This document shows, piece by piece, positions 8,727 to 30,246 of a stretch of 46,824 nt of DNA (position 1 is its first letter; every line of letters starts with the position of its first letter). The stretch is from the IMG/VR virus record IMGVR_UViG_2541047840_000001; one strand, written 5' to 3'. The stretch is from a virus. Its lineage: Duplodnaviria; Heunggongvirae; Uroviricota; Caudoviricetes. Position numbers and translations under genes: made by a program. The notes under the pieces are model-generated. The model searched no databases. It was not told the DNA's origin and saw nothing but the letters and a program-made list of their open reading frames with translations.

Positions 8727-9254
8727 ATGCAGCATTTAAAAAATATTAAGTCAGGAAATCCAAAAACAAAAGAGCAATATCAGCTAACAAAGAATTTTGA
8801 TGTTATCTGGTTATATACAGAAGACGGTAAAAACTGGTATGAGGAAGTAAATAACTTTCAGGACGACACCATAAAGATTGTATACGACGAAAATAATATT
8901 ATTGCCGCCATCACCAAAGATGCCTCCACGCTTAACCCTGAAGGTTTTAGCGTTGTCGAGGTTCCTGATATTACCGCCAACCGACGTGCTGATGACTCAG
9001 GTAAATGGATGTTTAAGGATGGTGCTGTGATTAAGCGGATTTATACGGCTGACGAACAGCAACAACAGGCCGAATCACAAAAGGCCGCGTTGATTTCCGA
9101 AGCTGAATCAGTCATCCAGCCGCTGGAACGCGCTGTCAGGCTGAATATGGCAACAGACGAGGAACGCACACGACTGGAAGCATGGGAACGCTACAGCGTT
9201 CTGGTCAGCCGTGTGGATACGGCAAATCCTGAATGGCCACAAAAGCCTGAATAA
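8727..9254 (+). CDS. Tail fibre assembly protein (chaperone)
   Basis: 175 aa directly after fibre gene; N-terminus [22 protein letters not shown] is paralogous to the minus-strand copy at 9283..9816. Confidence 0.8.
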
Positions 9255-9259
9255 AAATT

Positions 9260-9279
9260 AAGGCCCGATAGCGGGCCTT
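9260..9279. terminator. Hairpin between convergent fibre-assembly genes (bidirectional terminator-like)
   Basis: AAGGCCCG-ATA-GCGGGCCTT stem-loop followed by T-rich tract. Confidence 0.55.
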
Positions 9280-9282
9280 GTT

Positions 9283-9816
9283 TCATTCTGGTTGTTCTGG
9301 AAACGTTACTGGCAGGCTGGAGGTGTCTGTGGATTCGACCTTCTGCGCATAGAGCATCCACTCGGTTAATTTTTGTTTATTCTCGTTGGAAATGATACCC
9401 AGCCGTAGCTGTGAGTCCCATAGCTGGGTTTTATCCCTGACGAGCTGTAGCAGGCTTTGCTTTTCATTTTCCGCTTGTTGCCTCTGCTCTTCCTCGGTAT
9501 AAGTTCGCTTTATCACTACGCCATCTTTGAACAACCATTTCCCCGAAATATCAGCCCGGCGATTTGCTGTAATATCAGGTAATTCAACGACGCTTGCGCC
9601 TTCCGGATTAATTGCTGAAACATCCTTTTCAATACAAATAATAACGCCGTTATGGTCATAGACCATTTTCAAAGTGTCTGGCTGGAAATTCTTTTGTTCC
9701 TCATACCAGTTTTTTCCATCATCTGAATAAAGCCATTTGATGTTAAATTGCTTTGTTAGCTGGTATTGCTCTTTTGTTTTAGGGTTGCCAGCAGTAATGT
9801 TTTTTAAGTGCATCAT
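9283..9816 (-). CDS. Alternative tail fibre assembly protein
   Basis: 177 aa paralog of 8727..9254 in inverted orientation. Confidence 0.8.
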   Translation of the reverse strand: MMHLKNITAGNPKTKEQYQLTKQFNIKWLYSDDGKNWYEEQKNFQPDTLKMVYDHNGVIICIEKDVSAINPEGASVVELPDITANRRADISGKWLFKDGVVIKRTYTEEEQRQQAENEKQSLLQLVRDKTQLWDSQLRLGIISNENKQKLTEWMLYAQKVESTDTSSLPVTFPEQPE

Positions 9817-9818
9817 CG

Positions 9819-10707
9819 TTAAATACTCCCCGCGTTATACCACGTCCCATTAATGCAATACTGAATTGGCCTTGCCTGTGTTGTATCAATTAATTTATCA
9901 CGGTTTCCGTTAACTGAACCCGTAACGACATAACCTGACCTGTCAGACCAGCCGGGGCCATTCCATGTCTGAACAGATGACAGACCGCCAAGGCGAATAC
10001 CTGTAATAAACCTTGAGTTACATTCTGCCCGCGTGTATGCACCAACATCTCCCGCAGAGGGTTTGCGGGTCGTGGTGTAAAACTCTGACCAGTCAGCCTC
10101 AAATCCATAACCATCACGCGCTGAACGATAAAAAATACCGCCGTTCTTATAATTCACACGGAACTGTACGGCAGGGCAACTCCCCGCATTCATATTGAAG
10201 TGGAGGATTAATGTCGATGCACCGCTGATATCTGCATCATAAACACCGCTATTCCAGTTCCAGCCAACAGCTTTATCATTTGCAACCCTGCTTCCTGTTT
10301 GCCCTAAAGCAAATGCAGGCTGCTGGTTTTTCGTGTTGTAGTCTCGTCGCCAGCCAGGAGCGTAAGCATCACCATGATTAATATAAGTGAATTGAGCGTT
10401 AGTAATTCCGCCACCGCTGGACGTGCTCGGCGTGGTAACGCGTATGGTCATTGCGCCGCGAGTGCCAATAACTTCCACCACAGCACCTGCAAGACAAATA
10501 TTTCCGCAACCTGTATCTGTAATGACCTTATTATTTGCATAAGCCCATGAGCCTTTGCACATCCAGTAAGGATGGTTAAATGCCCCCTGGCTCTCCAGCC
10601 ACGAAATAAATTGCGCGGTTGTCCAGACCTGACTATCGCCACCAATATTCAGCCATGCGCTATATGCGCGGCAGGCCCCAATATTTTTGGTGAAGGTATC
10701 TTTTCCC
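9819..10707 (-). CDS. Alternative tail fibre variable C-terminal segment (Sv'-like, no own start; expressed after inversion)
   Basis: Minus-strand frame is open from 10780 down to the stop at 9819; translation through the IR reads LGLQETVNQASGALQKNQNGADIP, identical to the fibre gene at the left IR; reading frames match across the crossover. Confidence 0.75.
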
Positions 10708-10780
10708 GGAATATCTGCGCCGTTCTGGTTTTTCTGTAATGCGCCAGAAGCCTGATTTACCGTTTCCTGTAAACCGAGGT
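10708..10780. repeat. 73-bp perfect inverted repeat, right copy (IRR)
   Basis: Exact reverse complement of 7726-7798. Confidence 0.85.
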
Positions 10781-10789
10781 TTTTGCGAA
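10764..10789. other. gix/hix-like recombination site (right crossover site)
   Basis: TTCCTGTAAACC-GA-GGTTTTTGCGAA, strong match to recalled gix/hix sites; central dinucleotide is inverted relative to left site. Confidence 0.65.
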
Positions 10790-10853
10790 TTGCCTCTGTG
10801 TCGTCTGAACGATATTTTTTTCCGCTTTTAGCAACAATCGCGGTTTAGAAAGT

Positions 10854-11408
10854 ATGCAATATGGTTATGCGAGGGTGTCAACTTTTGACCAGAATTTGGA
10901 ATTACAACTGGAGGCGCTCAGGAGTTCAGGATGTGACCAGATTTTTGAAGATAAAATATCCGGTGCTAAATCAAAACGACCAGGACTTGATAAGCTACTT
11001 AAGGTGTTACGGCCGGGCGATACGGTTATTGTCTGGAAGCTGGACCGAATGGGGCGTTCTCTGATTCATCTTGTTGATTTACTTAACCATTTTTTATCAA
11101 ACAACATTGAGTTTATTTCGATTACGGAAGGGATAAAAATTAGCACTTCAATTGGCCGCTTTGCCTACACGATGCTGAGTGCAGTCGCAGAGATGGAGCG
11201 GGAAAATATGATTGAAAGAACGCGTGCAGGATTGGCGGTGGCAAGGGCTAACGGCAGGATAGGAGGACGCCGCTCAAAATTGGCACCAGAGCAATGGGAA
11301 CAGATCGGAAGGCTTATTGCGAATGGTGTTTCACGTAAGCGGATAGCGATTATCTTCGATGTTACCTTATCCACGCTTTACCGCAGGTTTCCGGCTGGGA
11401 ATCATTGA
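10854..11408 (+). CDS. Serine recombinase, DNA invertase (Gin/Hin/Cin/Pin family)
   Basis: 184 aa; N-terminal YARVSTxxQ catalytic-serine motif and C-terminal HTH; sits next to a gix-like site. Confidence 0.9.
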   Translation: MQYGYARVSTFDQNLELQLEALRSSGCDQIFEDKISGAKSKRPGLDKLLKVLRPGDTVIVWKLDRMGRSLIHLVDLLNHFLSNNIEFISITEGIKISTSIGRFAYTMLSAVAEMERENMIERTRAGLAVARANGRIGGRRSKLAPEQWEQIGRLIANGVSRKRIAIIFDVTLSTLYRRFPAGNH

Positions 11409-15156: not shown

Positions 15157-15258
15157 TATATAATTATAGATTTATATAAAAAGCGCTTTACAGGTGGGAA
15201 AAAATTTCCTAAGGTTATACCCGAAACCGAGCGATACCCGCCCTGGTTAAACCGGAGA
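15157..15258 (+). repeat. 102-bp regulatory module, copy A (AT-rich promoter-like box + conserved leader + GGAGA RBS)
   Basis: Identical to 24097-24198 except one mismatch (C at 15184 vs T at 24124); ends 7 nt before ATG of 15266. Confidence 0.85.
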
Positions 15259-15265
15259 TAACCCG

Positions 15266-15646
15266 ATGAGCATGATTAAAATCCGCAAAAACGCTTTCCT
15301 TAAAATTCAAACTATCCTGGCTGGTTCTGTTGGCGTGATTTGCCGTTCTTCCTCAAGCCGCATCGATGACGGCTACGATGATGAGTATCGTGTGTCCTCA
15401 TGCGATGAGGCTTTAACCTGGCTGAAGGAGAATCAGGAACGTGCCCAGGTATATCTGGAAACAGAGAACGGCAATCAGATGCTGCGTATTAGCGGTCGTT
15501 ATGGATTTGAAACTACATTCATGGCCTATTTTAATCAGGCTTACTTTGACAAGGAGTTGGCTTGGTACACTGATCGCATGAGCAAAAGCGAGCCAGCCCC
15601 GATTACACCGCCGAACAATAAACCATTTTTATTCCTCGTTAAGTAA
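15266..15646 (+). CDS. Hypothetical protein (126 aa)
   Basis: ORF with GGAGA RBS 7 nt upstream; no recognisable family. Confidence 0.55.
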   Translation: MSMIKIRKNAFLKIQTILAGSVGVICRSSSSRIDDGYDDEYRVSSCDEALTWLKENQERAQVYLETENGNQMLRISGRYGFETTFMAYFNQAYFDKELAWYTDRMSKSEPAPITPPNNKPFLFLVK

Positions 15647-16791: not shown

Positions 16792-17973
16792 TTATGGTCT
16801 GCTTTTCTGTGCCAGCTTATCAGCACATGTTTTTATCAGATCCTGTAGTGTCTTGGCTGGCAGGTTTGCATCCAGTACGCTGAGTATGCTGTTGTGATCA
16901 GCTTGGTCGACTACTTTGCCTGTCGGTGGTAGTAGCTTGAGCTGAGGATTCAGGTTTTCGTCAAAGCTGATAAGTGCTCTGGCGTTTCTGAGCAGATCAA
17001 GAAGTAAGGCTGATATCACATTTTCCTGAGTCATTGCTGGCAGATTTAGCGCCGCTTTGGTTTTCCCTGTTGCCTTGTCAAACTCCTTGATTAGTTCCTT
17101 CCTGTAGTTCGGTTCCGTTAATAGCCGATTATGCTCTGTTGCCGCGCGGATAATCGTTTTTTCTTGGTACAGTCGTTTAGCCAGATCACGCTCGTACTGT
17201 GTTTTTAACACGCTGCTGATAGCGTTAAAGGCTTCAATGTAGGCCAGCTTGATATCTTTCACGCTTGGACCGTCGATGCTCTCCATGAGCAAGGTAAATC
17301 CGTCTTTTGTCATGCGATAGATTGTTATTTCGCGGTCGCTTCCTTCCAACGGTCGTTGCTCTTTAAAAAAATGACGCGCCGCAGCTGTGCGAGGAATGCG
17401 TAACGCATCGATGGCCATAACGATGGAATTGTTTGTGGTGCTGAATGCCTGGGCAACATCGGCTGAGGTTGTGAGTGGCTCGTTATTGCACACCTTAATG
17501 TAAAACATCGGTTTGGCGTTGAGCGTATCGACAACCTCACGAGCATTGCTTGGCGAGACGGTAACGGTCGCGGCCGTTTGTGCGTTCTGGTTGAAATAGC
17601 AGTCTTCCAGCCGTTCGAACACATCCCACGCTTGGTTAGTTTCAAGCATTTTAGCGTGACGTGCAGCCCCGCGTTCTGTCCAGAGGATGAGGGAGCGAAC
17701 TTTCGGGGGAATTTGTAACCCTCTTAAAGATGGTTCGTTAACTACTCTCACAGGAACTCTTAAAGAGTTTTTGTTCTTCAACTCTCGTAACTCTTTACCT
17801 TCTATCCTAAAAAAGTGTTTACCTTCTATAAAACGTTCCTTGTTTCTATTGAAATTGTTTGTCAGACGTTGGCGCTCGGTTCCATACAATTGCGCCAGTA
17901 GTTCAGTAGTGATAACGGGGAGCTGGTTATGCAGGATAGGCTGTAGGGTGTTAACGGTCGGAAGCGTTTTCAT
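16792..17973 (-). CDS. Phage antirepressor-like regulatory protein (ORF6N / Rha-like domains)
   Basis: 393 aa; N-terminal segment ending FIEGKHFF and a central Rha-like segment; calls are from recalled domain patterns. Confidence 0.65.
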   Translation of the reverse strand: MKTLPTVNTLQPILHNQLPVITTELLAQLYGTERQRLTNNFNRNKERFIEGKHFFRIEGKELRELKNKNSLRVPVRVVNEPSLRGLQIPPKVRSLILWTERGAARHAKMLETNQAWDVFERLEDCYFNQNAQTAATVTVSPSNAREVVDTLNAKPMFYIKVCNNEPLTTSADVAQAFSTTNNSIVMAIDALRIPRTAAARHFFKEQRPLEGSDREITIYRMTKDGFTLLMESIDGPSVKDIKLAYIEAFNAISSVLKTQYERDLAKRLYQEKTIIRAATEHNRLLTEPNYRKELIKEFDKATGKTKAALNLPAMTQENVISALLLDLLRNARALISFDENLNPQLKLLPPTGKVVDQADHNSILSVLDANLPAKTLQDLIKTCADKLAQKSRP

Positions 17974-18161: not shown

Positions 18162-18917
18162 GGTGATAGTTCCCTTAAAGGTTAAGGATACTCACCACCG
18201 TCTGGTTCCAATCATTGGGTGGTGAGACGTACAGGGTTGGAACTACCGGTCACCATGGAATCCGGCGAGTCTTACGACTCCCCCGCACGCCCCACCATAA
18301 TTTGGGTGTAGCAGTGCTTTACGCATAAAAAAACCGCTAACGCGGTATGCGCCATGATGATTATCGGGGTTCCAATCCCGGTCGTAGATTTTGCTACGGC
18401 TCGGAAAGTGTCCACCAATGGCGCATTCATGTCAATACGGCGGGATTTTAACAGAGACAACCACATAGCGTGGGTTTATTGGTAGGCAGAAACAAAAAAA
18501 CCGCCCTATTGAGGACGGTTCTTTCGTGCTGATCGGATTCGCGGTCCTTTCAGCATTACGTTGTTGTATAAACAACCACGCAAGCACAAGCAGCAAGTTA
18601 ATTTTACCCAAAAGGTAATAATAGTCCACTATTATGCTTCATAAAATTGTGGTTCTTGTTGTGCCTGCAAACTCACAGATTGTGGGTAGGTTACTGATTT
18701 TGTGAAAATAAACTGGTTTTTTCGTTTAATTTATTTCCTATTACTAATCTTAAAATAATCGTAAAATACCTGTGGACCTTCCCGCCGATTCGCACCCGGG
18801 CACCGACTTTAGGGGAGGATTTCCTGTTGCCGTACATGCAAGCACAAGCAGCCGTGCTTGCTCTCGCGTTGTTTTCGTCGGTGGGGATGCCGTGAAACGG
18901 CCTGTAAGGGCCATACA

Positions 18918-19040
18918 ATGAAAAAATACTGTATGTGTATTTTTATCGTTGTTACTGGGGCTTTGTTTACGCCACATGGGGAGGGTTGGAAGATTACTGA
19001 TAACGCTCTGAATGTGACGATAAACATTAGCAGCAAGTAG
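18918..19040 (+). CDS. Candidate small hydrophobic peptide (40 aa)
   Basis: ATG 18918 with AAGG RBS inside a short hairpin; translation MKKYCMCIFIVVTGALFTPHGEGWKITDNALNVTINISSK; strong terminator immediately downstream. Confidence 0.3.
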   Translation: MKKYCMCIFIVVTGALFTPHGEGWKITDNALNVTINISSK

Positions 19041-19045
19041 CGATT

Positions 19046-19068
19046 AGGCCCCTTCGGGGGCCTTTTTT
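19046..19068 (+). terminator. Rho-independent terminator
   Basis: AGGCCCC-TTCG-GGGGCCT followed by TTTTTT. Confidence 0.65.
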
Positions 19069-19549: not shown

Positions 19550-19584
19550 TTTTATATAAATCTATAAAACTATAATTATATATT
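19550..19584. repeat. AT-rich dispersed motif copy (TTTTATATAAATCTATAA...TATAATTATATA)
   Basis: Shares TATAAATCTATA and TATAATTATATA cores with other copies; lies between parA stop and parG start. Confidence 0.6.
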
Positions 19585-20257: not shown

Positions 20258-20290
20258 GATTATATAATTCTATAAATCTATATTTATAGA
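20258..20290. repeat. AT-rich dispersed motif copy upstream of parA
   Basis: GATTATATAATTCTATAAATCTATATTTATAGA. Confidence 0.6.
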
Positions 20291-20330: not shown

Positions 20331-20365
20331 TTTTATATAATTATATAAATCTATAATCATATAAG
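20331..20365. repeat. AT-rich dispersed motif copy upstream of parA
   Basis: TTTTATATAATTATATAAATCTATAATCATATAAG, followed by hairpin GCGGGC-GTTA-GCCCGC (20365-20380). Confidence 0.6.
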
Positions 20366-20853: not shown

Positions 20854-21510
20854 TCATAACCAGTTGACAACACTAACTACGCGGCCCAGAACTTTATAAC
20901 GCTTAAATTCCTCGTTATTCAGATGCTTAGTGTTCATTTCAGCATCCCTTTCGGTTGACAGCATAACAGCATTGTCACCCGGTATGACTCTACAGTGCCT
21001 CAAAACAACCAGGCCATTTCTGTCTTCAAGGGCATAGATCCCCTCATGAATCTCTGTATCGTCTGTATCAATCAGGACTTGGGAGCCAGGGGATATTGTT
21101 GGTGACATTAACTCATCGTTGCTCTGGAGAACTGACAGAGACGATGGGTTGATGTTCTTGCTTCGTAGAATCTCCTGTTCTATCGCCAGCACTGGCTTTT
21201 CTCCGGCGTGCGATGCTATGTCATTTTTTATAGCTACAAGCCCAGGAATAACAGGAGCGTTAGTATTCTGGGGTGGGAACGGGTTATCTGTTAAGCACGC
21301 GATATAAGGCGCTGATGCTTTCAGGGCGTGCGCGATTTTCTTGATGGCAGGTATAGATGGTTGTCTTAATCCGGCCTCATAGTTCTGCAAGGTGCTTAAG
21401 CCTATTCCAGTGACTTGCTGGAGATCTCCGGCAGTCATGCCGGATTGTTTCCGTAGAGTCTGAATGCGCAGACCTATTTCTTTCTTGATGTTCTCGTCGT
21501 TGCTTTTCAT
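20854..21510 (-). CDS. CI-like prophage repressor (N-terminal HTH, C-terminal S24/LexA-like peptidase)
   Basis: 218 aa; N-terminal HTH-like segment; C-terminal half consistent with an S24 autoproteolytic domain; divergent from a Cro-like gene. Confidence 0.8.
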   Translation of the reverse strand: MKSNDENIKKEIGLRIQTLRKQSGMTAGDLQQVTGIGLSTLQNYEAGLRQPSIPAIKKIAHALKASAPYIACLTDNPFPPQNTNAPVIPGLVAIKNDIASHAGEKPVLAIEQEILRSKNINPSSLSVLQSNDELMSPTISPGSQVLIDTDDTEIHEGIYALEDRNGLVVLRHCRVIPGDNAVMLSTERDAEMNTKHLNNEEFKRYKVLGRVVSVVNWL

Positions 21511-21562: not shown

Positions 21563-21650
21563 TTTCACATGGTAAGACGAGAGGTGGACCACAAATAGAA
21601 GGTTATTTTTTGTTTTGCCCATTGAAAAACTCACGATATGTGGTTTTAAT

Positions 21651-21665
21651 ACCACATATCGTGGT
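21651..21665. promoter_or_regulatory. Operator-like palindrome ACCAC-ATATC-GTGGT
   Basis: Perfect 5-bp arms; a related palindromic sequence CACGATATGTGG lies at 21632-21643. Confidence 0.5.
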
Positions 21666-21684: not shown

Positions 21685-22179
21685 ATGACCTTTCAGGAGT
21701 GGGTTGACGAAAATGGAGGCCAAATTGGTGTTGCCAGAAAGTTTGGCTTTACGTCATCACTGATTGGTGCCTGGTATCGCTTCGAGAGATTCCCTCGTGC
21801 GGATAACCTGACGCTGCTGGTGGCGTATTCGGAAGGCCGGATTAACGTCCAGCAATGGGCGGCAGATTTTGCCGAACGTCAGCGCCAGCGTAGCGATGGC
21901 ACATCGGTTCGGCAGAACAAGATCAAAGGGAATCTCCCTGTTAACTGCTTATCAAGGCTGAAAGCGGTTTTCTCTGAGTTGGGGATGCCTGCGGAGCGTT
22001 GCAATCTACGCGGTCCGCGATTCATTGCTCGCTGGAAACACTCACACGTAACCGTTTCAGAGGTTCGTGATGCGATTACCGTGCTGGAGCTTAAGAATAA
22101 AGATTCCAGCGATATCGAGCTGATTCATAAGGAGATTAGCAACGCCCGGCGTTCAGCACTTGGGAGGCTTGAGGAATGA
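21685..22179 (+). CDS. Early regulator, Cro/YdaS-like N-terminal HTH with C-terminal extension (tentative)
   Basis: 164 aa, first gene transcribed divergently from repressor; CTGGAG RBS. Confidence 0.5.
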   Translation: MTFQEWVDENGGQIGVARKFGFTSSLIGAWYRFERFPRADNLTLLVAYSEGRINVQQWAADFAERQRQRSDGTSVRQNKIKGNLPVNCLSRLKAVFSELGMPAERCNLRGPRFIARWKHSHVTVSEVRDAITVLELKNKDSSDIELIHKEISNARRSALGRLEE

Positions 22180-22691: not shown

Positions 22692-22921
22692 GTAGTTATG
22701 TTCGCGGTGCTGCGATGCATTGCCAGAATCCCCAATTCTGGCGCTTTCTGACCAGTAAAACAGGGAAGAACGTTTCAAACAGTTCTGAGGCCTCTGTGAT
22801 TCTGCGTGAGTTTTGCGGGATCTCATCCCGTAAAGAGCTGGCAAAGAACTACGCGGCCAGAAGCATGTATGTCCAGTTAATCAACGAGTTCAACCTCTTT
22901 ATCAATGGTAAGGGGCGCTGA
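22688..22921 (+). CDS. Hypothetical early-region protein
   Basis: 77 aa ORF, overlapping stops/starts with neighbours. Confidence 0.4.
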   Translation: MSSYVRGAAMHCQNPQFWRFLTSKTGKNVSNSSEASVILREFCGISSRKELAKNYAARSMYVQLINEFNLFINGKGR

Positions 22922-23325
22922 TGAACGGACGTACACCAACGAAGAAAGAGAAACTTTATATACAAGCGGTGCTCACTCACGTGGGTTGCATAGCTTGCAT
23001 TATTGATGGCCGTGAAATTGAGAATCCAGAGCTGTGGACGGAGCTACATCACGATCCTGATTACGGCAGCGTTGATGAGAATTGCCACTTCCATAGCTTT
23101 GGGTTGTGCGCACCACATCATCGCGGTGTTGTGCCTGGTGGTGGGCGCGTGCCTCCGCATATTGCCGTTCGTCACCCTCCCCTGAGTAATTGTGCTCGCT
23201 TTGTTGAGCGTTATGGCACCGATGAATTTTTGTGTGCGCAGACGTGGGAGCTGTTGCCGCAGTCAGTTAAAGACGAAATTGGGTTTGATCTTAGTCTTGG
23301 TGAAGTACCAGGGGATACCAAATGA
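22921..23325 (+). CDS. Cys/His-rich putative HNH-type nuclease (Ref-like, tentative)
   Basis: 134 aa with CIAC and HH...CHFH...HH motifs suggesting a zinc-binding HNH-like fold. Confidence 0.45.
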   Translation: MNGRTPTKKEKLYIQAVLTHVGCIACIIDGREIENPELWTELHHDPDYGSVDENCHFHSFGLCAPHHRGVVPGGGRVPPHIAVRHPPLSNCARFVERYGTDEFLCAQTWELLPQSVKDEIGFDLSLGEVPGDTK

Positions 23326-23654
23326 GATATACCGGCTTTCGCAAACCAGCGACCAGGAAAAGCAAATACGGCAATAAAAAAACTGTTGTCGATGATATCT
23401 CTTTTGATAGCAAAAAAGAGGCTGATTACTACTGCGAACTGAAGCTACTGAGAAAAGCTGGCCGCGTTGTGACGTTTCTTATGCAGGTGCCTTTTCATCT
23501 GCCAGGTGGTGTCGTTTATAAACTTGATTTCATGGTGTTTTATGACGATGGGACGATTGATTGTGTCGACACTAAAGGTGTGCGAACAGACGTCTACATC
23601 ATGAAGAAAAAGCAGGTAGAGGCGCTTTATCCCGTCACGATACGGGAGATCTGA
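23322..23654 (+). CDS. DUF1064-like phage protein (tentative)
   Basis: 110 aa; N-terminal KYGNKKTVVDDISFDSKKEADYY pattern recalled from DUF1064 family phage proteins. Confidence 0.55.
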   Translation: MRYTGFRKPATRKSKYGNKKTVVDDISFDSKKEADYYCELKLLRKAGRVVTFLMQVPFHLPGGVVYKLDFMVFYDDGTIDCVDTKGVRTDVYIMKKKQVEALYPVTIREI

Positions 23655-23657
23655 ACA

Positions 23658-24035
23658 GTGAGACGCGATCTGGATAGCTTGTTTGAGCTATGGGCGCTGT
23701 GGGTGCGCAATGGCTGCAACGCCCGTAGCGGTTTCGCGTCGATGTTAGAAATGATGATGGTTACGCGCTGCCAGTTTACCGGAGGGGGCGGCGCACCAAA
23801 TGACTCACTGGAAACCAGTATCGAGGGAGCGGTGACGGCCCTCACGGTAGTTGATGAGACTGCGGCGCTGGTTGTCCGAATTGAATACGGGGCGTGGGAG
23901 ATTCGGGGCCTCGACATAAATGCACCGCATATTGATAAAGCCCACGCCCTTTCTCTTAGTCTCAGACAGTATCGCCGGAAGCTGGCAAAAGCCAGGGCGT
24001 ATGTTGTCGACTATTTGAAAAAGCGAAGAGAGTAA
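23658..24035 (+). CDS. Putative late-gene antiterminator (Q-like, tentative)
   Basis: 125 aa, last gene of early region immediately before the duplicated module and late-region genes; weak resemblance to small Q-family proteins. Confidence 0.4.
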   Translation: MRRDLDSLFELWALWVRNGCNARSGFASMLEMMMVTRCQFTGGGGAPNDSLETSIEGAVTALTVVDETAALVVRIEYGAWEIRGLDINAPHIDKAHALSLSLRQYRRKLAKARAYVVDYLKKRRE

Positions 24036-24096
24036 AAGTGTCATTTTGAGCTGTTTTGATGGTGTGTAGATATCGGGAACATCGAAAATCTATAAA

Positions 24097-24198
24097 TATA
24101 TAATTATAGATTTATATAAAAAGTGCTTTACAGGTGGGAAAAAATTTCCTAAGGTTATACCCGAAACCGAGCGATACCCGCCCTGGTTAAACCGGAGA
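24097..24198 (+). repeat. 102-bp regulatory module, copy B
   Basis: One mismatch to 15157-15258; ends 7 nt before ATG of 24205. Confidence 0.85.
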
Positions 24199-24204
24199 AA
24201 TCTG

Positions 24205-25272
24205 ATGAATAAACAAGTAATTATTTCTGACTGGATCAACAACCCTAACAGCCTGTTAAGCACTGATACTGGCTACCTATTACGCCATGTTAATGGTCGT
24301 ATGGTCAAAAGCGATGAGCACGAAACCTTTTTCTTTGTTGAAGATGATGGGCGTATCTATGAGGATGGTTACTCTTATGAAGCCCAAACTGGTTGTATCC
24401 CTGCGGAGCTGGTGGACGTAACAGAAGATCTGCGCAAAGCATGGCTTGAACAGCAGCAGCGCGGAGATGATTACGTAAACACCTATCAGGAACGCCAGAA
24501 CGCGCGTCTTGCCCGATATATTGCTCGTGCAGAAAAAGCCAGAAAAGAAGGTGCGGTAGCGCATAAGCGAGCGCATGACCTGTTGGATGTGATCCCGTTA
24601 GGCCAGCCGATTTTAGTTGACCATTATAGCGCGAAAGGCCATCGCCGCCGTTTGTCTAAAGCTGATGCGTTATTAAGAAAAGCGTTTGTTGAATGCGAAA
24701 GTAAAGCATCACACTACGAGAGCAAAGCCGCAGGTGTTGGTCGTAATGGAATTTCGTCTGATGATCCTGATGCGCTATTTAAGTTGCTTCGTAAGCTGCA
24801 AGGCTGCATGAAGTCACACGTCAAAATGAAGGCCGCAAATAAGGCCATTCGCAAATACAAAAAAGACCAATTACAGCAGCTTTCTGCATTAATCGATCTC
24901 AGGTTTACAGAAAGCGAAGCCAAAGAGTTACTGGCCGGAGATTTCTGTGGGCGCATCGGATTCCCTTCATACGTACTGAGCAACAATAACGCCGAGATCA
25001 AACGACTACAGAGCCGTATTAAGGAGCTTGAATCGGTCAAGTCTGTAACAGGAGCACAGCGCGAAGAATACGACGACTTTTCTATGGAGATAGATCCAGA
25101 GGATAACCGCATCCTGTTTTATTTCCCTGGCAAACCAGAGGCAAACATTCGTTCGCTGCTTAAATCACGCGCCTTTAAGTGGAGTCCAACCCGTAATGCA
25201 TGGATTCGCAAAATTACTCCAAATGCCCTGGCTGATGCCCGATATCTGAAAGAATCGCTATTGAAAGCCTGA
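24205..25272 (+). CDS. DUF3560-like protein (function unknown)
   Basis: 355 aa; C-terminal ILFYFPGKP...KWSPTRNAWIRK segment recalled from the DUF3560 family. Confidence 0.55.
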   Translation: MNKQVIISDWINNPNSLLSTDTGYLLRHVNGRMVKSDEHETFFFVEDDGRIYEDGYSYEAQTGCIPAELVDVTEDLRKAWLEQQQRGDDYVNTYQERQNARLARYIARAEKARKEGAVAHKRAHDLLDVIPLGQPILVDHYSAKGHRRRLSKADALLRKAFVECESKASHYESKAAGVGRNGISSDDPDALFKLLRKLQGCMKSHVKMKAANKAIRKYKKDQLQQLSALIDLRFTESEAKELLAGDFCGRIGFPSYVLSNNNAEIKRLQSRIKELESVKSVTGAQREEYDDFSMEIDPEDNRILFYFPGKPEANIRSLLKSRAFKWSPTRNAWIRKITPNALADARYLKESLLKA

Positions 25273-25283
25273 CAGTAAGCCTA

Positions 25284-25303
25284 CGGCGGGATGTCTCCCG
25301 CCG
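25284..25303 (+). terminator. Hairpin CGGCGGG-ATGTCT-CCCGCCG after DUF3560 gene
   Basis: 7-bp GC stem followed by TA-rich tract. Confidence 0.45.
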
Positions 25304-25338
25304 TATATAGAATTATATATTTATATAAATGTATAAGG
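25304..25338. repeat. AT-rich dispersed motif copy
   Basis: TATATAGAATTATATATTTATATAAATGTATAAGG. Confidence 0.55.
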
Positions 25339-25349
25339 ACGCCTCGACA

Positions 25350-25631
25350 ATGAAACGCAAAATTATTAACCCCCAAGATGTGATTAATTTCCTGACCGAT
25401 CACCCATGTTCAAAAGTGGACGTAATCGCGGAGCACATTGGTGTGTCGCAGAACTCTATGCGTTGCAGACTGAGAAGCATGGTTGCCGAAGGACAGATAA
25501 CAACCAGGAAAATAAATGGTTGCCTGTACTACTCCGCTAAACCGGAATTGCCATTTGGCATGAACCCTAACTCCATGTTGTTTAACACCTTATTAGCCAA
25601 AGTTAAGCCGTTGAGAGGGGCTGTGGCATGA
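25350..25631 (+). CDS. Small putative DNA-binding protein
   Basis: 93 aa from ATG 25350 (track ORF starts 25329). Confidence 0.45.
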   Translation: MKRKIINPQDVINFLTDHPCSKVDVIAEHIGVSQNSMRCRLRSMVAEGQITTRKINGCLYYSAKPELPFGMNPNSMLFNTLLAKVKPLRGAVA

Positions 25632-25993
25632 GCATCAAAACCCATACCGGAATAATCATCACCATTGATGGTGAGAAAAAAGTGAAGTTACGCGAAACGC
25701 CGACAACTTGGTGTGTTGGTCCGAAAGAAACATATCGCAAGGAAGATGGGCGCCGTTGTGGGTCGCCACTTTCCAGCCGTCGCCTCCTTTTGAGCACGAT
25801 AAAACCTATCGGGCAGGTTGAGCAACCAACGACTCCGGTAACGAAGATTTCAGACAAGAGTCTGGCAAATCTGATCGCAGATGCGGACAAGGTGCTGGAG
25901 CGGAACACCCCCGTTGCAGATGAGGAGTGGTGGCAGGATTTCCGAGCCGCAATGCTAGAGCTTCAGGAACGTCGTCGGGAGGAGTTGAAGTGA
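25628..25993 (+). CDS. Hypothetical protein
   Basis: 121 aa, coupled. Confidence 0.45.
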   Translation: MSIKTHTGIIITIDGEKKVKLRETPTTWCVGPKETYRKEDGRRCGSPLSSRRLLLSTIKPIGQVEQPTTPVTKISDKSLANLIADADKVLERNTPVADEEWWQDFRAAMLELQERRREELK

Positions 25994-26013
25994 GCAAGGT
26001 GAAAGAGCGCGGC

Positions 26014-26619
26014 ATGATTTTTAATGATGAGATGGTCCGAGCCATCCTCGAAGGCAGGAAGACGCAGACTCGTCGACCTGTAAAAAATGTCAGGGCCGAT
26101 AACTGCCTGGTTATCAGTAAACCGACAAAGAAACGCAATGGTGTCTATACCCACGTTATGGATGCACCTGAGCATGGCTTATGCCCGTTCGGTAACGTTG
26201 GTGATCGCATATGGGTACGTGAGACATTCAACGCTTTTTGGCTGGATGACGATGTTATTCAGGAAATCAAAGATGGTGTCTCTCTGGCTTCTGAACTGTG
26301 TGATTACAAGGCTGATTACTCAGATAGTAACAAGCCATCTGAGGGCTGGACCCCGTCAATTCACATGCCGAGATGGGCATCGCGAATTTTGCTGGAAATT
26401 ACCGACGTGCGTGTGGAGCGGCTGCATGACATGAGCGAGGCAGATGCCAAAGCGGAAGGCGCATCTCCGGCAACGTACAAGATTACGCCGCCGGAAGCTG
26501 TTTATCGTGTTGGTTTTGGTGATATCTGGCGCGGTATTTACGGGCAAGAGAACTGGCTATCTAACCCGTGGGTATGGGTAATTGAGTTTAAACGTATTCA
26601 GGGGGCAAACAGTGAGTAA
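26014..26619 (+). CDS. ASCH (PUA-like) domain protein (tentative)
   Basis: N-terminal MVRAILEGRKTQTRRP resembles the ASCH GRKTxTxR signature; start could instead be GTG 25990. Confidence 0.5.
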   Translation: MIFNDEMVRAILEGRKTQTRRPVKNVRADNCLVISKPTKKRNGVYTHVMDAPEHGLCPFGNVGDRIWVRETFNAFWLDDDVIQEIKDGVSLASELCDYKADYSDSNKPSEGWTPSIHMPRWASRILLEITDVRVERLHDMSEADAKAEGASPATYKITPPEAVYRVGFGDIWRGIYGQENWLSNPWVWVIEFKRIQGANSE

Positions 26620-26869
26620 TTCCGCACGGCTACAGCTTGGTTTTTCACCGCTATCAAAAACCATCGTGTTGGCCAAAATGCGCGATTTAGGTGACGGAAC
26701 AAAACGCCGTGTAGGCAATGATCGCGGTCGTGATGTAACCAACGAGGCCGCACAACTCGTTTGGCATCTTGTCATGGCAGAAGGCGGTGAAATCAATTGG
26801 GAGCTGGATGATGGTTCTCGCATGGTGTTAAGGGCAGAAAAGCAGGGGGCAAACGATGAAAAACCGTAA
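26582..26869 (+). CDS. Hypothetical protein
   Basis: ORF from track; true start uncertain. Confidence 0.35.
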   Translation: MSLNVFRGQTVSNSARLQLGFSPLSKTIVLAKMRDLGDGTKRRVGNDRGRDVTNEAAQLVWHLVMAEGGEINWELDDGSRMVLRAEKQGANDEKP

Positions 26870-27050
26870 AGCAAAGATTCTGTTAGTTCGTAGAAACGCT
26901 CCTGGCGTCTGGCAGTGGGTGAGACTCAGCAACCGACGGATGGGGTTAATGAAACATTACGGGATGATGGATTGTGGTTTTTGCAAAAAGCCCAGCGCGG
27001 CGCAAAACCGCTGGAAAAACCACTGTTATCTGCGCACTAAAGGAGAGTGA
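26856..27050 (+). CDS. Hypothetical small basic protein
   Basis: 64 aa ORF from track. Confidence 0.35.
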   Translation: MKNRKAKILLVRRNAPGVWQWVRLSNRRMGLMKHYGMMDCGFCKKPSAAQNRWKNHCYLRTKGE

Positions 27051-27051
27051 G

Positions 27052-27567
27052 ATGGCGTTAACACACCGCGAACTCTGTCAGATTGCGTACAAGTTCCTTA
27101 AGCGCAACGGGTTCAAGGTTTGCTTTCATGACCGCTTTATAGCTGTAACCAGTACCGGAGAACAGCCAGATGCTATGGGATTCAGAAATTCAGCATCATG
27201 CCTGATAGAGGCAAAGTGTTCTCGTGCTGACTTGTTGGCAGATAGAAAAAAGCGTTTCCGTAAAAATCCCTCACTTGGCATGGGCGACTGGCGATTCTTT
27301 ATTAGTGAGCCGGGAATTATTTCAGTTGAGGATTTACCTCCCGGCTGGGGATTACTTCACGTTGTTAACGGAAGAGTACGGAAAGTACATGGGTGGCCCA
27401 AGGGAAATTGCTGTTGGGGTAATCCTGACGATAAGCCATTTACTGGAAATAAGCAGGTTGAATGCGATTACATGTTATCTGCATTAAGGCGCATGGAGTT
27501 GAGAGGGCACCTTAATGAAATATATGACGGTGTAATTGTTAATAAGAAAGAAGGAAACGCGGCATGA
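27052..27567 (+). CDS. Putative PD-(D/E)XK-fold nuclease
   Basis: ATG 27052 after AGGAGAG; motif QPD...(12 aa)...IEAK fits the PD-(D/E)XK pattern. Confidence 0.5.
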   Translation: MALTHRELCQIAYKFLKRNGFKVCFHDRFIAVTSTGEQPDAMGFRNSASCLIEAKCSRADLLADRKKRFRKNPSLGMGDWRFFISEPGIISVEDLPPGWGLLHVVNGRVRKVHGWPKGNCCWGNPDDKPFTGNKQVECDYMLSALRRMELRGHLNEIYDGVIVNKKEGNAA

Positions 27568-28007
27568 TTACTATTACCAAAGAGCGACTACTGACAATCA
27601 AGCAGTGGCGCGAAACATACGGACCTAGTAGCAACGTTGTACTGCCAGCAGAAGAAGCGGAAGAACTGGCACGAATTGCTCTGGCAGCGCTGGAAGTCGA
27701 GCCGGTTGCAGTAAACGACGACATGGCTTACGCATTCCATCACGCATTGTCAGATTCATCGCTAGGCGCTGATGAAGTAGAGGAAATTAAGGCCGGTTTG
27801 CGTGCTGCCTTTGCCAACGTCACTATCCAACCAGAGCCGGTAGTGCCGGATGATGGTCGCGAAAAGTTCGAAGCACTTGTCAGGTTTCATGCGGGTGATA
27901 AAGACCATGAAACATTATTGCTTCGTGCCAACGAAGGGATGAATTACCAGGACCCGAATGTTGATCTGGCGTGGATATTCTGGAAGTCCAGTCGTGAACA
28001 TATATAA
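27564..28007 (+). CDS. Hypothetical acidic protein
   Basis: 147 aa, coupled to upstream gene. Confidence 0.5.
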   Translation: MITITKERLLTIKQWRETYGPSSNVVLPAEEAEELARIALAALEVEPVAVNDDMAYAFHHALSDSSLGADEVEEIKAGLRAAFANVTIQPEPVVPDDGREKFEALVRFHAGDKDHETLLLRANEGMNYQDPNVDLAWIFWKSSREHI

Positions 28008-28348
28008 GCTGTAGTGAGAAGCCATGCGATTACGAGCAGTATTCAGATATTCAGAGCGGATAATGAAGCACATACAACCGAAAACATGGCAGAAACTGGA
28101 CTCTATGGGAGTTAAGTTGGAGAAGATTACTCAACTTAAGCAGTGGCATATCGGCGAATATTATGGAAGTCCTGGCCGGGATGTTCGTTTGGCAAAAAGT
28201 TGAGTATTGTTTTTTTATTGATCGATTAACCACGATTTGAAGGTTTTTTTTATGAGAAAACCTTGTTTTAGGTGGTAACTGGGTGTAGTGTTTCATTTAA
28301 CGTAGTAAAACTGCGTTAAGCGATTACCGCGTAATTTGTTGCTTTATG

Positions 28349-28381
28349 AAGCCCTGCCTTTTTCGGCGGGGCTTTTTTTTT
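28349..28381 (+). terminator. Rho-independent terminator-like hairpin upstream of lysis cassette
   Basis: AGCCCTGCC-TTTTTC-GGCGGGGCT followed by TTTTTTTT. Confidence 0.5.
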
Positions 28382-28394
28382 AACGAGGATTTCA

Positions 28395-30001: not shown

Positions 30002-30034
30002 TATATATTTCTATAATTATATAAATATATAGTT
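30001..30034. repeat. AT-rich dispersed motif copy
   Basis: ATATATATTTCTATAATTATATAAATATATAGTT. Confidence 0.55.
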
Positions 30035-30170
30035 ACAACATTCTATGCGCTTTTCTCATGAGCGCACGCATCAACCATGTTTGTCTGATATGCCGCCGCG
30101 CCCAAAAATCCTGAATTTATTGGCTGGGATTTTCGTGCGCGGCGCCACACCAGACAAACAGATCAAATAT

Positions 30171-30246
30171 GGCCCCTTAGCTCAGTGGTTAGAGCAGGCG
30201 ACTCATAATCGCACGGTCATCGGTTCAAATCCGGTAGGGGCCACCA
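30171..30246 (+). tRNA. tRNA with CAU anticodon (closest to tRNA-Ile2 type; tRNA-Met not excluded)
   Basis: 7-bp acceptor stem GGCCCCT/AGGGGCC, anticodon loop CTCATAA, T-loop GGTTCAAATCC, 3' CCA encoded; 5' half matches E. coli ileX as recalled from memory. Confidence 0.8.

Follow-up and report, generated by a model that had tools for sequence, protein, structure and literature searches.

The stretch of DNA analysed here, 46,824 nt of IMG/VR virus record IMGVR_UViG_2541047840_000001 (referred to below as the window), derives from a tailed virus of the class Caudoviricetes and contains, at positions 24205-28007, a block of eight open reading frames (ORFs; g1 to g8) between a gene similar to the antiterminator genes of the Q type and the lysis genes. 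Results of our analysis indicate that this block is probably a mosaic operon of independent cassettes, expressed from an array-controlled promoter and by read-through from the early genes, in which g4 would encode an N4-acylcytosine/N4-acetylcytidine (ac4C) amidohydrolase, g7 a structure-specific endonuclease of recombination or repair, and g1 an establishment factor of plasmid type. A mosaic accessory bay of this sort is of a known kind, but it occupies here an unusual slot in a poorly studied family of phage-plasmids.

According to the proposed reading, each single-gene cassette of the operon would have been acquired independently, with the gene of a Q82-type regulator upstream and a terminator guarding the lysis genes downstream. 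Transcription would start at the block's own sigma-70-type promoter cassette (24127-24155) and would also enter from the early-right operon, because no terminator separates the Q-like gene from the block; it would end at the hairpin and terminator region 28240-28385 unless the RNA polymerase is termination-resistant. Each product would act on nucleic acids independently of the others, either at the establishment stage or early in lytic growth. The product of g4 is predicted to be a YqfB-type amidohydrolase that takes N4-acyl groups off cytosine or cytidine, whether these are free or part of tRNA. That of g7 is a predicted Mg2+-dependent structure-specific DNA endonuclease of the recombination/repair type (MmcB- or Hjc-like), and its activity would add to that of the Ref and DUF1064 nucleases, the genes of which lie just upstream. 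The product of g1, judging by its likeness to homologues from the leading regions of conjugative plasmids, may be a DNA-entry or establishment factor. Two "hypothetical" proteins that are very common in phages thereby receive a fold and catalytic residues, which makes their activities directly testable, and the map of the cargo hot spot, the terminator-guarded lysis cassette and the repeated operator array is a starting point for studying how cargo is regulated in the plasmid state.

Gene content and mosaicism of the block

The eight ORFs (Table 1) lie on the plus strand, fill the block and coincide with the coding sequences P39_00050-57 of Yersinia phage vB_YpM_39, to which the window is 99.2% identical over 24000-28100, a stretch that includes the full length of the block. 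Each of them matches a PHROG family at E <= 1e-24, and therefore they are genuine genes and not chance ORFs; a function is known only for the family of g2 ("MarR family"). The gene inventory given in the preliminary description, which had been made from the sequence alone, is correct, including the DUF3560 protein, the small DNA-binding protein and the acidic 147-aa protein (pI 4.68). Some of its start codons need correction: the likely starts are 25350 for g2, the GTG at 25990 for the ASCH-domain gene g4 (209 aa) and 26612 for the DUF7446 gene g5, the remaining ones being as described. From g2 to g8 every stop codon overlaps or abuts the following start, as in an operon with translational coupling. 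The NCBIfam scan of the eight proteins yielded nothing useful.

The proximal and distal halves of the block differ in their conservation. Genes g1-g3 are conserved in the close Escherichia coli and Yersinia members of the family; in two more distant relatives, designated L013 and L014, the identity of g1 and g2 drops to 51-69% and g3 was not detected. The distal five genes (those of the ASCH and DUF7446 proteins, g6, g7 and g8) are swapped among siblings and recur in lambdoid prophages (in the exo-xis (ea) and nin regions), in phage P1 (PmgT) and in lytic phages; the DNA of g6-g7-g8, for instance, is 95-97% identical in Stx phages. The DNA breakpoints, which have conserved flanks, fall at gene boundaries (~25994-26000, 26222/26353, 26620, 27056 and 27704). 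At least 80% of the block is covered in one phage record and in 7 of 5426 complete E. coli genomes, while some part of it occurs in 1602 genomes. In the sibling phages vB_YpM_41 and vB_YpM_44, as well as in several IMG/VR contigs, the ASCH gene is kept, in the form of two alleles (96-99% or 73% identical to g4), and g5-g8 are missing or replaced.

The contexts in which g7 is found elsewhere are particularly varied. A Stx2 phage carries a 99.4% identical g7 in its pL operon (order N, Ea10, CIII, Kil, Gam, Bet, Exo, …, g7, …, xis, int), and more distant homologues (62-70% identical) are encoded in nin regions, between a lambda-P-like replication gene and Q. The copy of Morganella is flanked by NinF, NinG and DUF1367 genes, that of Rahnella is followed by genes of DUF1367 and RecA_dep_nuc proteins, and the N-terminal nuclease core is present also in lytic Ackermannviridae and Vibrio phages, with 642 phage records overall. 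Because of the places that they occupy in other phages and plasmids, the cassettes are typical early accessory genes for nucleic-acid handling. The preliminary description, which suggested that a defence-related module was possible, had named synteny of the NinB/NinG kind as an observation that would speak against it, and this was found in part: kin of g7 stand among NinF, NinG and Ref-type genes, and in the exo-xis region of Stx phages.

The slot between the Q-like gene and the lysis genes

The gene preceding the block ends a tightly packed early-right operon, following the genes of the Ref nuclease (22921-23325) and the DUF1064 protein (23322-23654). Its product had no direct Pfam match at E <= 0.01, and the 31 matches found in a search for its close homologues all lack Pfam labels; a scan of genome contigs returned a single locus. 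A profile search over 1.84 billion representatives provided 128 collinear relatives. Eleven of the 94 relatives scanned matched PF06530 (Phage_antitermQ; best E 3.7e-6), and the comparison of the family profile with the PF06530 Q protein of a Morganella prophage by hhalign gave a probability of 92.8% and E 4.1e-7 over residues 3-77. These profile comparisons agree with the Q-like neighbour named in the preliminary description and provide reasonable support for the assignment of the 23658-24035 product as a distant relative of Q82-type antiterminators. The protein also has a weak full-length match (E 2.5e-4) to NCBIfam NF051483, the PA0613 family. The PA0613 gene is located just upstream of the holin gene in the R/F-pyocin cluster of Pseudomonas aeruginosa, and PA0613 might also be a Q-type regulator.

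Downstream of the block lies the lysis cassette, with holin, endolysin and spanin genes, as originally described. The terminator that abuts the holin gene is the only strong one between the Q-like gene and the holin (24036-28394). Its position is kept, despite sequence divergence, in the relatives L013, L014, L016-18, L020 and L021; in the terminator-bearing relatives the holins are 27-39% and the Q-like proteins 50-65% identical to those of the window. The conservation of this position in seven relatives suggests that lysis is under antitermination control. Between the AU-rich hairpin at 28240-28264 and the terminator lies an element (28261-28317) that is near-invariant in the window, L013 and L014, with diverging flanks, and the region 28204-28394 folds with a z score of -5.2. 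An unannotated ORF at 28024-28203 is always found just upstream of the terminator and the late genes; according to tblastn it is 93-100% identical in close relatives and has 54-61% amino-acid identity in L013/L014, and family scans gave no match for it.

In the relatives, 4-10 kb of largely different genes are present between the Q-like gene and the holin-side terminator, and where the Q-like identity is ~50-65% the genes in the slot are entirely different. The slot is a conserved cargo bay, with different genes in every relative, and the exchangeable cargo proposed for it in the preliminary description is indeed there. What does not hold is its placement in the "classic moron position" of lambdoid phages. 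The block has a repeated promoter cassette and is followed by a terminator; it lies upstream, not downstream, of the only strong terminator, and its GC content (0.44-0.50) is similar to that of the flanks. As the block precedes the terminator, expression of the cargo needs no antitermination.

Association of the ASCH and nuclease genes

On the model raised by the preliminary description, the ASCH protein would read a modified nucleotide and direct or license the PD-(D/E)XK nuclease, so that the two would constitute a two-component modification-dependent restriction or anti-defence module. Type IV restriction enzymes do use PUA-like domains to recognise modifications (PMC12707154). In the window 433 nt separate the two genes, and Vibrio phage Her has both of them within 2.4 kb. 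We surveyed their linkage in 80 IMG/VR loci with 99-100% identical g7, none of which belongs to the phage-plasmid family studied here, and in 79 ASCH loci. An ASCH homologue was found within 8 kb of g7 in 20 of the 80 loci, always upstream and on the same strand, which suits such a module; its distance from g7 varied from 0.4 to 4.4 kb, with intervening genes, which does not. The ASCH proteins encoded next to these 99-100% identical copies of g7 are only 46-71% identical to g4. The association of near-identical g7 with diverged ASCH alleles indicates that the histories of the two genes are independent. In the reverse direction, g7 accompanies only 3 of the 79 ASCH genes (76 loci lack it), the siblings mentioned above have the ASCH gene alone, and no fusion of the two proteins was found among the matches listed (the best 120 of 325 g7 homologues and the best 120 ASCH homologues). 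We conclude that the ASCH protein and g7 do not form a two-gene sensor-nuclease module; together with the intact catalytic residue set of g4 (K, T, R and E) described below, these results make the reader-and-nuclease model very improbable indeed.

A closer partner of g7 may be g6, which precedes it in 37 of the 80 g7 loci. The N-terminal part of phrog_9263 (230 aa) corresponds to g6 and its remainder to g7, so that g6-g7, in place of the ASCH gene and g7, may be a real functional pair.

The ASCH-domain protein g4

The protein encoded at 26014..26619 had been proposed to have an ASCH (PUA-like) fold, and our results confirm this beta-barrel fold for g4, the relatives of which are labelled by PGAP as "ASCH domain-containing protein". 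Its motif G22-R-K24-T-Q-T27-R-R29 fits the octapeptide G-x-K-x-x-(T/E)-x-R and places the protein in the GKTR subgroup; it aligns with G19-R-K21-T-I-T24-I-R26 of YqfB, the sequence of which is identical to that of PDB 1te7, so that K24, T27 and R29 of g4 correspond to K21, T24 and R26 of YqfB. In the alignment of 25 g4 homologues, K24, T27, R28, R29 and E156 are invariant, and hhalign places the invariant E156 on YqfB E74, with a low probability (8%). The K21A, T24A and R26A mutants of YqfB are inactive, and the activity of E74A is reduced 100-1000-fold (PMC6972931). In a 2026 preprint, all 19 of the 19 ASCH proteins tested were reported to strip ac4C from tRNA, and GKTR and GKER motifs were told apart. 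Because the YqfB catalytic set of K, T, R and E is conserved as a whole, g4 looks like a YqfB-type hydrolase with ~100 residues of insertions rather than a passive reader of modified nucleotides, the role suggested for it previously. Searches of PDB sequences with the single protein and with profiles detected nothing for g4.

Homologues of g4 are named "morphogenetic proteins" owing to their kinship with PmgT of phage P1. No functional study of PmgT was found in a literature search, and the family, which is represented in phages of Pseudomonas, Vibrio, Microcystis and Salinibacter, has the ASCH hydrolase fold and catalytic residues, the "morphogenetic" label being an annotation name only. The g4 homologues are located in the early-left accessory region of integrated prophages, with an integrase gene about three genes off, and RecT, Ea22-like proteins and MT-A70, Dam and S-adenosylmethionine (SAM) methyltransferases are frequent among their neighbours.

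A tRNA gene with a CAU anticodon is located at 30171-30246. It is assigned as tRNA-Met by ARAGORN and in GenBank, and as tRNA-Ile by PGAP in a related plasmid; the PGAP assignment would make it a tRNA-Ile2 of the lysidine type, which is possible. A connection between this tRNA and g4 as a possible ac4C eraser was considered and rejected, since L014 has the tRNA without the ASCH gene; a CAU tRNA was present in 2 of 79 ASCH loci and in 3 of 80 control loci.

The PD-(D/E)XK-fold protein g7

The core of g7 has the alpha-beta-beta-beta-alpha-beta arrangement of restriction-endonuclease-like proteins, and the PD-(D/E)XK call made earlier for the 27052..27567 product was right. Residues P39-D40 and E53-A-K55 are invariant in 24 homologues and align with D…ECK of 3dnx; an "SRxDxxAD" motif is also present. 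The g7 profile was aligned with 3dnx as "GEQPDA…CLIEAKCSRSDLLAD" with "RVDV…WVIECKSSRADFQAD" (E 0.62), and this sub-significant motif match was the only one obtained in PDB searches with g7, either as a single sequence or as a profile. The 3dnx fragment itself belongs to the Pfam MmcB-like family PF06319 (5.2e-10), which none of the 24 g7 members matched at E <= 1. Thus, g7 is a fold-level kin of MmcB-like proteins and not a PF06319 member. The Pfam scan of the 24 homologues gave weak Hjc matches for nine of them and nothing else. MmcB itself, a PD-(D/E)XK endonuclease induced in the SOS response, has been implicated in the repair of crosslinks (PMC9578287).

The other block products and a possible role in counter-defence

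The match of g1 to PF12083 (DUF3560) is unequivocal (E 7.6e-31; 107.2 bits against a gathering cut-off of 27.2). The gene is kept in vB_YpM_39, vB_YpM_41, vB_YpM_44 and close E. coli plasmids, its product is 67-69% identical in L013/L014, and it is absent from L015-L023. DUF3560 proteins with 40-46% identity to the C-terminal 265 residues of g1 (~90-355) are encoded by 433 plasmids, and 231 of these plasmids are conjugative. A PromA plasmid has this region as the C-terminal part of a protein with the annotation "ArdC", encoded in a cluster that includes kfrA and ssb, and in pO157 the g1 homologue is listed among antirestriction, DNA methylase and ssb genes.

Among the remaining products, g2 matches phrog_1687 (5.2e-32), has weak Pfam matches to FaeA and HTH_24, and is named "helix-turn-helix domain-containing protein" by PGAP. 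The g3 protein (phrog_7520, 3.8e-83) is 96-100% identical in close members of the family and 56% identical in L004 and L021. A gene for g5, which matches PF24233 at E 5.1e-17, was found in only some family members, and g6 matches phrog_1380 at 3.5e-38. The N- and C-terminal parts of g8 match different PHROG families, and its relatives are named Ead/Ea22-like or DUF551 proteins by PGAP. No Pfam match was obtained for g3, g6, g7 and g8.

The defence role considered in the preliminary description found nothing credible in its favour in PADLOC-DB v2: seven of the eight block proteins had no match at E <= 0.01, and the eighth, g2, had a marginal partial match to SoFic (E 0.0063). It may be asked instead whether the block is a counter-defence or establishment island, expressed early from its own promoter, some or all cassettes of which shield the incoming phage-plasmid DNA from host immunity. 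The DUF3560 protein would then act as in plasmid leading regions and g8 as a mimic of DNA, the ASCH protein would remove a signal or base modification, and the nuclease would eliminate a host factor. This would agree with the neighbours of g1 homologues named above, including the fusion of one of them to an "ArdC" N-terminal region, with the orphan methyltransferases (MT-A70, Dam or SAM) that are often encoded no more than four genes away from ASCH homologues, with the occurrence of g7 relatives in strictly lytic phages, with the acidic nature of g8 and with the independence of block expression from antitermination. However, the general scans, which did not include a library of anti-defence hidden Markov models, revealed no homology to characterised anti-defence proteins, the nin and exo-xis contexts suit recombination or housekeeping accessory genes equally well, and the distal cassettes are dispensable in siblings that plate on the same Y. 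pestis host. We regard a role of some or all of the cassettes in counter-defence as conceivable but rather unlikely, and prefer the interpretation of the block as a mosaic of separately acting accessory genes.

Promoter, AT-rich arrays and regulation

The 169-bp gap that follows the Q-like gene is devoid of a terminator and contains an AT-rich array and then the candidate promoter of the block. The 102-nt promoter/5' untranslated region cassette at 24097-24198 is duplicated at 15157-15258 (99% identity), upstream of ORF 15266-15646, the 126-aa product of which had no family match. A third copy, which the window lacks, follows the MT-A70 gene of vB_YpM_39 and of E. coli plasmids.

The pattern TATA-N4-TATA-N4-TATA, of 8-bp periodicity, has 22 matches in the window against 0.18 expected by chance, and these fall into seven intergenic clusters (15157-15178, 19555-19582, 20263-20290, 20334-20363, 24089-24118, 25306-25335 and 30002-30037). 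Two of the array sites are upstream of parA and one is between parA and the gene of its 82-aa partner; the others are upstream of ORF 15266, upstream of g1, between g1 and g2, and after the spanin genes. An array directly follows the Q-like gene also in L013, L014, L016-18 and L023, and none was found at this place in L020-22. Relatives with ~54% identity of ParA and 38-42% identity of the partner have arrays at the parA promoter, at the ORF 15266 homologue and after the Q-like gene. The repeat unit is different in L016-18 and L023 (GATATAAA-type), while the closer L013/L014 carry the unit of the window type. It can be argued from the conserved position and the co-varying unit sequence that the arrays are real operator sites. 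The system formed by ParA and its partner may use them as dispersed centromeres or operators. The arrays flanking the block promoter resemble those that bracket the parA promoter, and for this reason a common array-binding protein probably sets the expression from the block promoter. By analogy with the omega or ParG repressors, our best guess for this protein is the 82-aa partner of ParA.

In phages of the Q82 type, pR' directly follows Q. Conceivably, therefore, the promoter after the Q-like gene could be an equivalent of pR', constitutive and normally stopped at 28348-28385, from which the Q-like protein would turn terminated transcripts into read-through late ones; the block would then be a Q-dependent or lysogen-expressed moron operon with cargo for lysogenic conversion or superinfection defence. 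The position of the promoter-like cassette directly after the Q-like gene is as expected, the first strong terminator is the holin-side one, and in L016-18 the Q-like gene is followed by an AT array while another array of this kind precedes the holin-side terminator by ~20 nt. On the other hand, the arrays are not Q-specific, being present at 7-8 operon boundaries, that of the parA promoter among them, a separately conserved element is present just upstream of the terminator, relatives of g7 and of the ASCH protein are encoded in early operons and in lytic phages, and PADLOC offered only the marginal partial match of g2. Taken together, these points make the moron operon quite unlikely.

The preferred reading, that of a mosaic operon under array control, has weaknesses of its own that weigh against it. 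With 17.7 bits (E 0.006), g4 stays below the cut-off of 21.2 bits for Pfam ASCH PF04266, and of the five AlphaFold models made for it only one is confident. At the sequence level, g7 matches neither MmcB (E 0.62) nor any Pfam family significantly. The candidate promoter at 24127-24155 is weak, agreeing with the consensus at 8 of 12 positions; it was missed by the consensus promoter scan, which found none on the plus strand in this region. No family match was obtained for the 82-aa ParA partner, so that its binding to the arrays is a guess. Alternatively, the element 28261-28317 could serve as the late promoter, or the block promoter could be the Q-dependent equivalent of pR'. Finally, the presence of an ASCH gene within 8 kb in 25% of g7 loci is far above chance across all phages, a figure to be read with the fact that both genes inhabit the same accessory regions.

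A bolder extension of the preferred reading would place the cargo operon in a small regulon of AT arrays shared with the parA and ORF 15266 promoters, in which an omega-like partition adaptor couples maintenance to cargo, and the PmgT-family ASCH protein, as an ac4C/N4-acylcytosine eraser, reprograms host tRNA or nucleotide pools during establishment. For the regulon there is positional and co-variation support, and for the eraser that of the conserved catalytic residues only; we consider the combined idea unlikely.

The carrier element

Many E. coli plasmids of ~48 kb match parts of the block, and vB_YpM_39, propagated on Y. pestis EV76, has a circular genome of 49 kb. The RefSeq annotation of a related plasmid lists repA, a RelE/ParE toxin-antitoxin pair, parA, a cI-like XRE repressor, the Ref nuclease and DUF1064. 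It also lists the block, holins and a GH108 endolysin, together with a tRNA, an MT-A70 methyltransferase, the terminase, portal and capsid proteins and a contractile tail of the P2 type. Pfam matches of the window proteins confirmed ParA, the HTH_3 repressor, RecA_dep_nuc (Ref), the holin and MT-A70; the Peptidase_S24 match of the repressor was sub-threshold (20.0 bits against a cut-off of 23.3). Because of this annotation and its confirmation for the window genes, the element can be classified by its gene content as a ~48-kb RepA/ParA phage-plasmid with a P2-like contractile tail of myovirus type. Membership in the pSLy3 phage-plasmid group was considered and dropped, as pSLy3 belongs to the SSU5 supergroup. 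A literature search found no paper on vB_YpM_39, vB_YpM_41 or vB_YpM_44, and the ~48-kb family is widespread but little described.

Several further features of the window concern its immunity and host range. Rfam matches at gathering score to the P1-type C4 antisense RNA, isrK and ryfA were found at 18215-18302 (minus strand), 18327-18400 (minus strand) and 18772-19068 (plus strand), beside the antirepressor-like ORF6N gene (16792-17973), and their clustering there indicates a putative secondary immunity region similar to P1 immI. The main operator is probably an inverted repeat with a 14-bp stem at 21631-21664, in the divergent region that separates the cI-like repressor gene (20854-21510, minus strand) from the early-right operon, which begins at 21685. 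The region 8727-11408, in which plus-strand genes of tail fibre and assembly proteins are followed by inverted minus-strand alternatives (9283-10562) and a 184-aa ORF (10854-11408), looks, from its ORF layout only, like an invertible host-range segment of the Mu/P1 type.

Table 1. Features of the accessory block and its flanks (positions in the window)
Feature	Position	Strand	Basis
g1, DUF3560 protein, 355 aa	24205..25272	+	Pfam PF12083
g2, small winged-helix DNA-binding protein, 93 aa (alternative start 25329, 100 aa)	25350..25631	+	phrog_1687, weak Pfam, PGAP
g3, 121 aa, no assigned function; ends the conserved half of the block	25628..25993	+	phrog_7520
g4, ASCH-domain protein, 209 aa (GTG 25990) or 201 aa (ATG 26014)	25990..26619	+	P1 PmgT family
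g5, DUF7446 protein, 85 aa	26612..26869	+	Pfam PF24233
g6, basic 64-aa protein, pI 11.1	26856..27050	+	phrog_1380
g7, PD-(D/E)XK nuclease-fold protein, MmcB-like, 171 aa	27052..27567	+	D40, E53, K55
g8, acidic 147-aa protein, pI 4.68	27564..28007	+	PHROG 660, 924, 60
Ninth small ORF, 59 aa, basic, unannotated	28024..28203	+	tblastn conservation
Q-like gene, 125 aa, distant relative of Q82-type antiterminators (PF06530)	23658..24035	+	profile comparison
Strong intrinsic terminator, 11-bp GC-rich stem and T run	28348..28385	+	ends 10 nt before holin start 28395
Conserved non-coding element, 57 nt, candidate late promoter or leader	28261..28317	+	57 nt near-invariant
Candidate sigma-70 promoter, TTTACA, 17-nt spacer, TAAGGT	24127..24155	+	read from sequence
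8-bp-periodic AT-rich array (TATA-N4-TATA-N4-…) upstream of the block promoter	24089..24118		pattern match
Second AT-rich 8-bp array, between g1 and g2	25306..25335		pattern match

Comparison with known systems

The cassettes have their closest parallels in different systems. For g4, these are E. coli YqfB, an N4-acetylcytidine amidohydrolase (PDB 1te7/9kyf), and the ASCH tRNA ac4C erasers, with which it shares the ASCH barrel fold and, in the case of YqfB, the GRKTxTxR octapeptide with its Lys, Thr and Arg and the C-terminal Glu aligned with E74. PmgT of P1, annotated with a "putative morphogenetic function", is 45% identical to g4 over 92% of the length. The closest known kin of g7 are the MmcB-like PD-(D/E)XK proteins (PF06319), including SPO1766 (PDB 3dnx) and Caulobacter MmcB. 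The DUF3560 proteins of conjugative-plasmid leading regions (pO157 and the PromA "ArdC") are, like g1, plasmid-borne and 40-46% identical to its residues ~90-355; the N-terminal 90 residues of g1 differ, and its carrier is a phage-plasmid without conjugation genes.

As regards control regions, ParG, the omega arrays and the dispersed centromeres of N15 are known iterated-site systems. Like the sopC-like repeats of N15, the omega heptads of pSM19035 and the ParG boxes of TP228, the arrays described here are short repeats at the par promoter and at other operon boundaries. The hairpin, near-invariant element and terminator abutting the holin start (28240-28385) have a layout resembling that of lambda 6S/tR'. 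The bay resembles the moron slot of Stx phages and lambda (Q - pR' - tR' - cargo - S) in that its cargo, enclosed by a Q-type gene and the holin gene, is variable and in that an intrinsic terminator stands between regulator and lysis genes, but here the terminator is downstream of the cargo, next to the holin gene, and the GC content is not atypical. Like the block, the nin and exo-xis (ea/b) regions of lambdoid phages are mosaic runs of early accessory genes that are small, closely spaced and non-essential. In contrast to these regions, the bay described here follows a Q-type gene and precedes the lysis terminator of a plasmid-prophage, and is equipped with its own promoter cassette and arrays.

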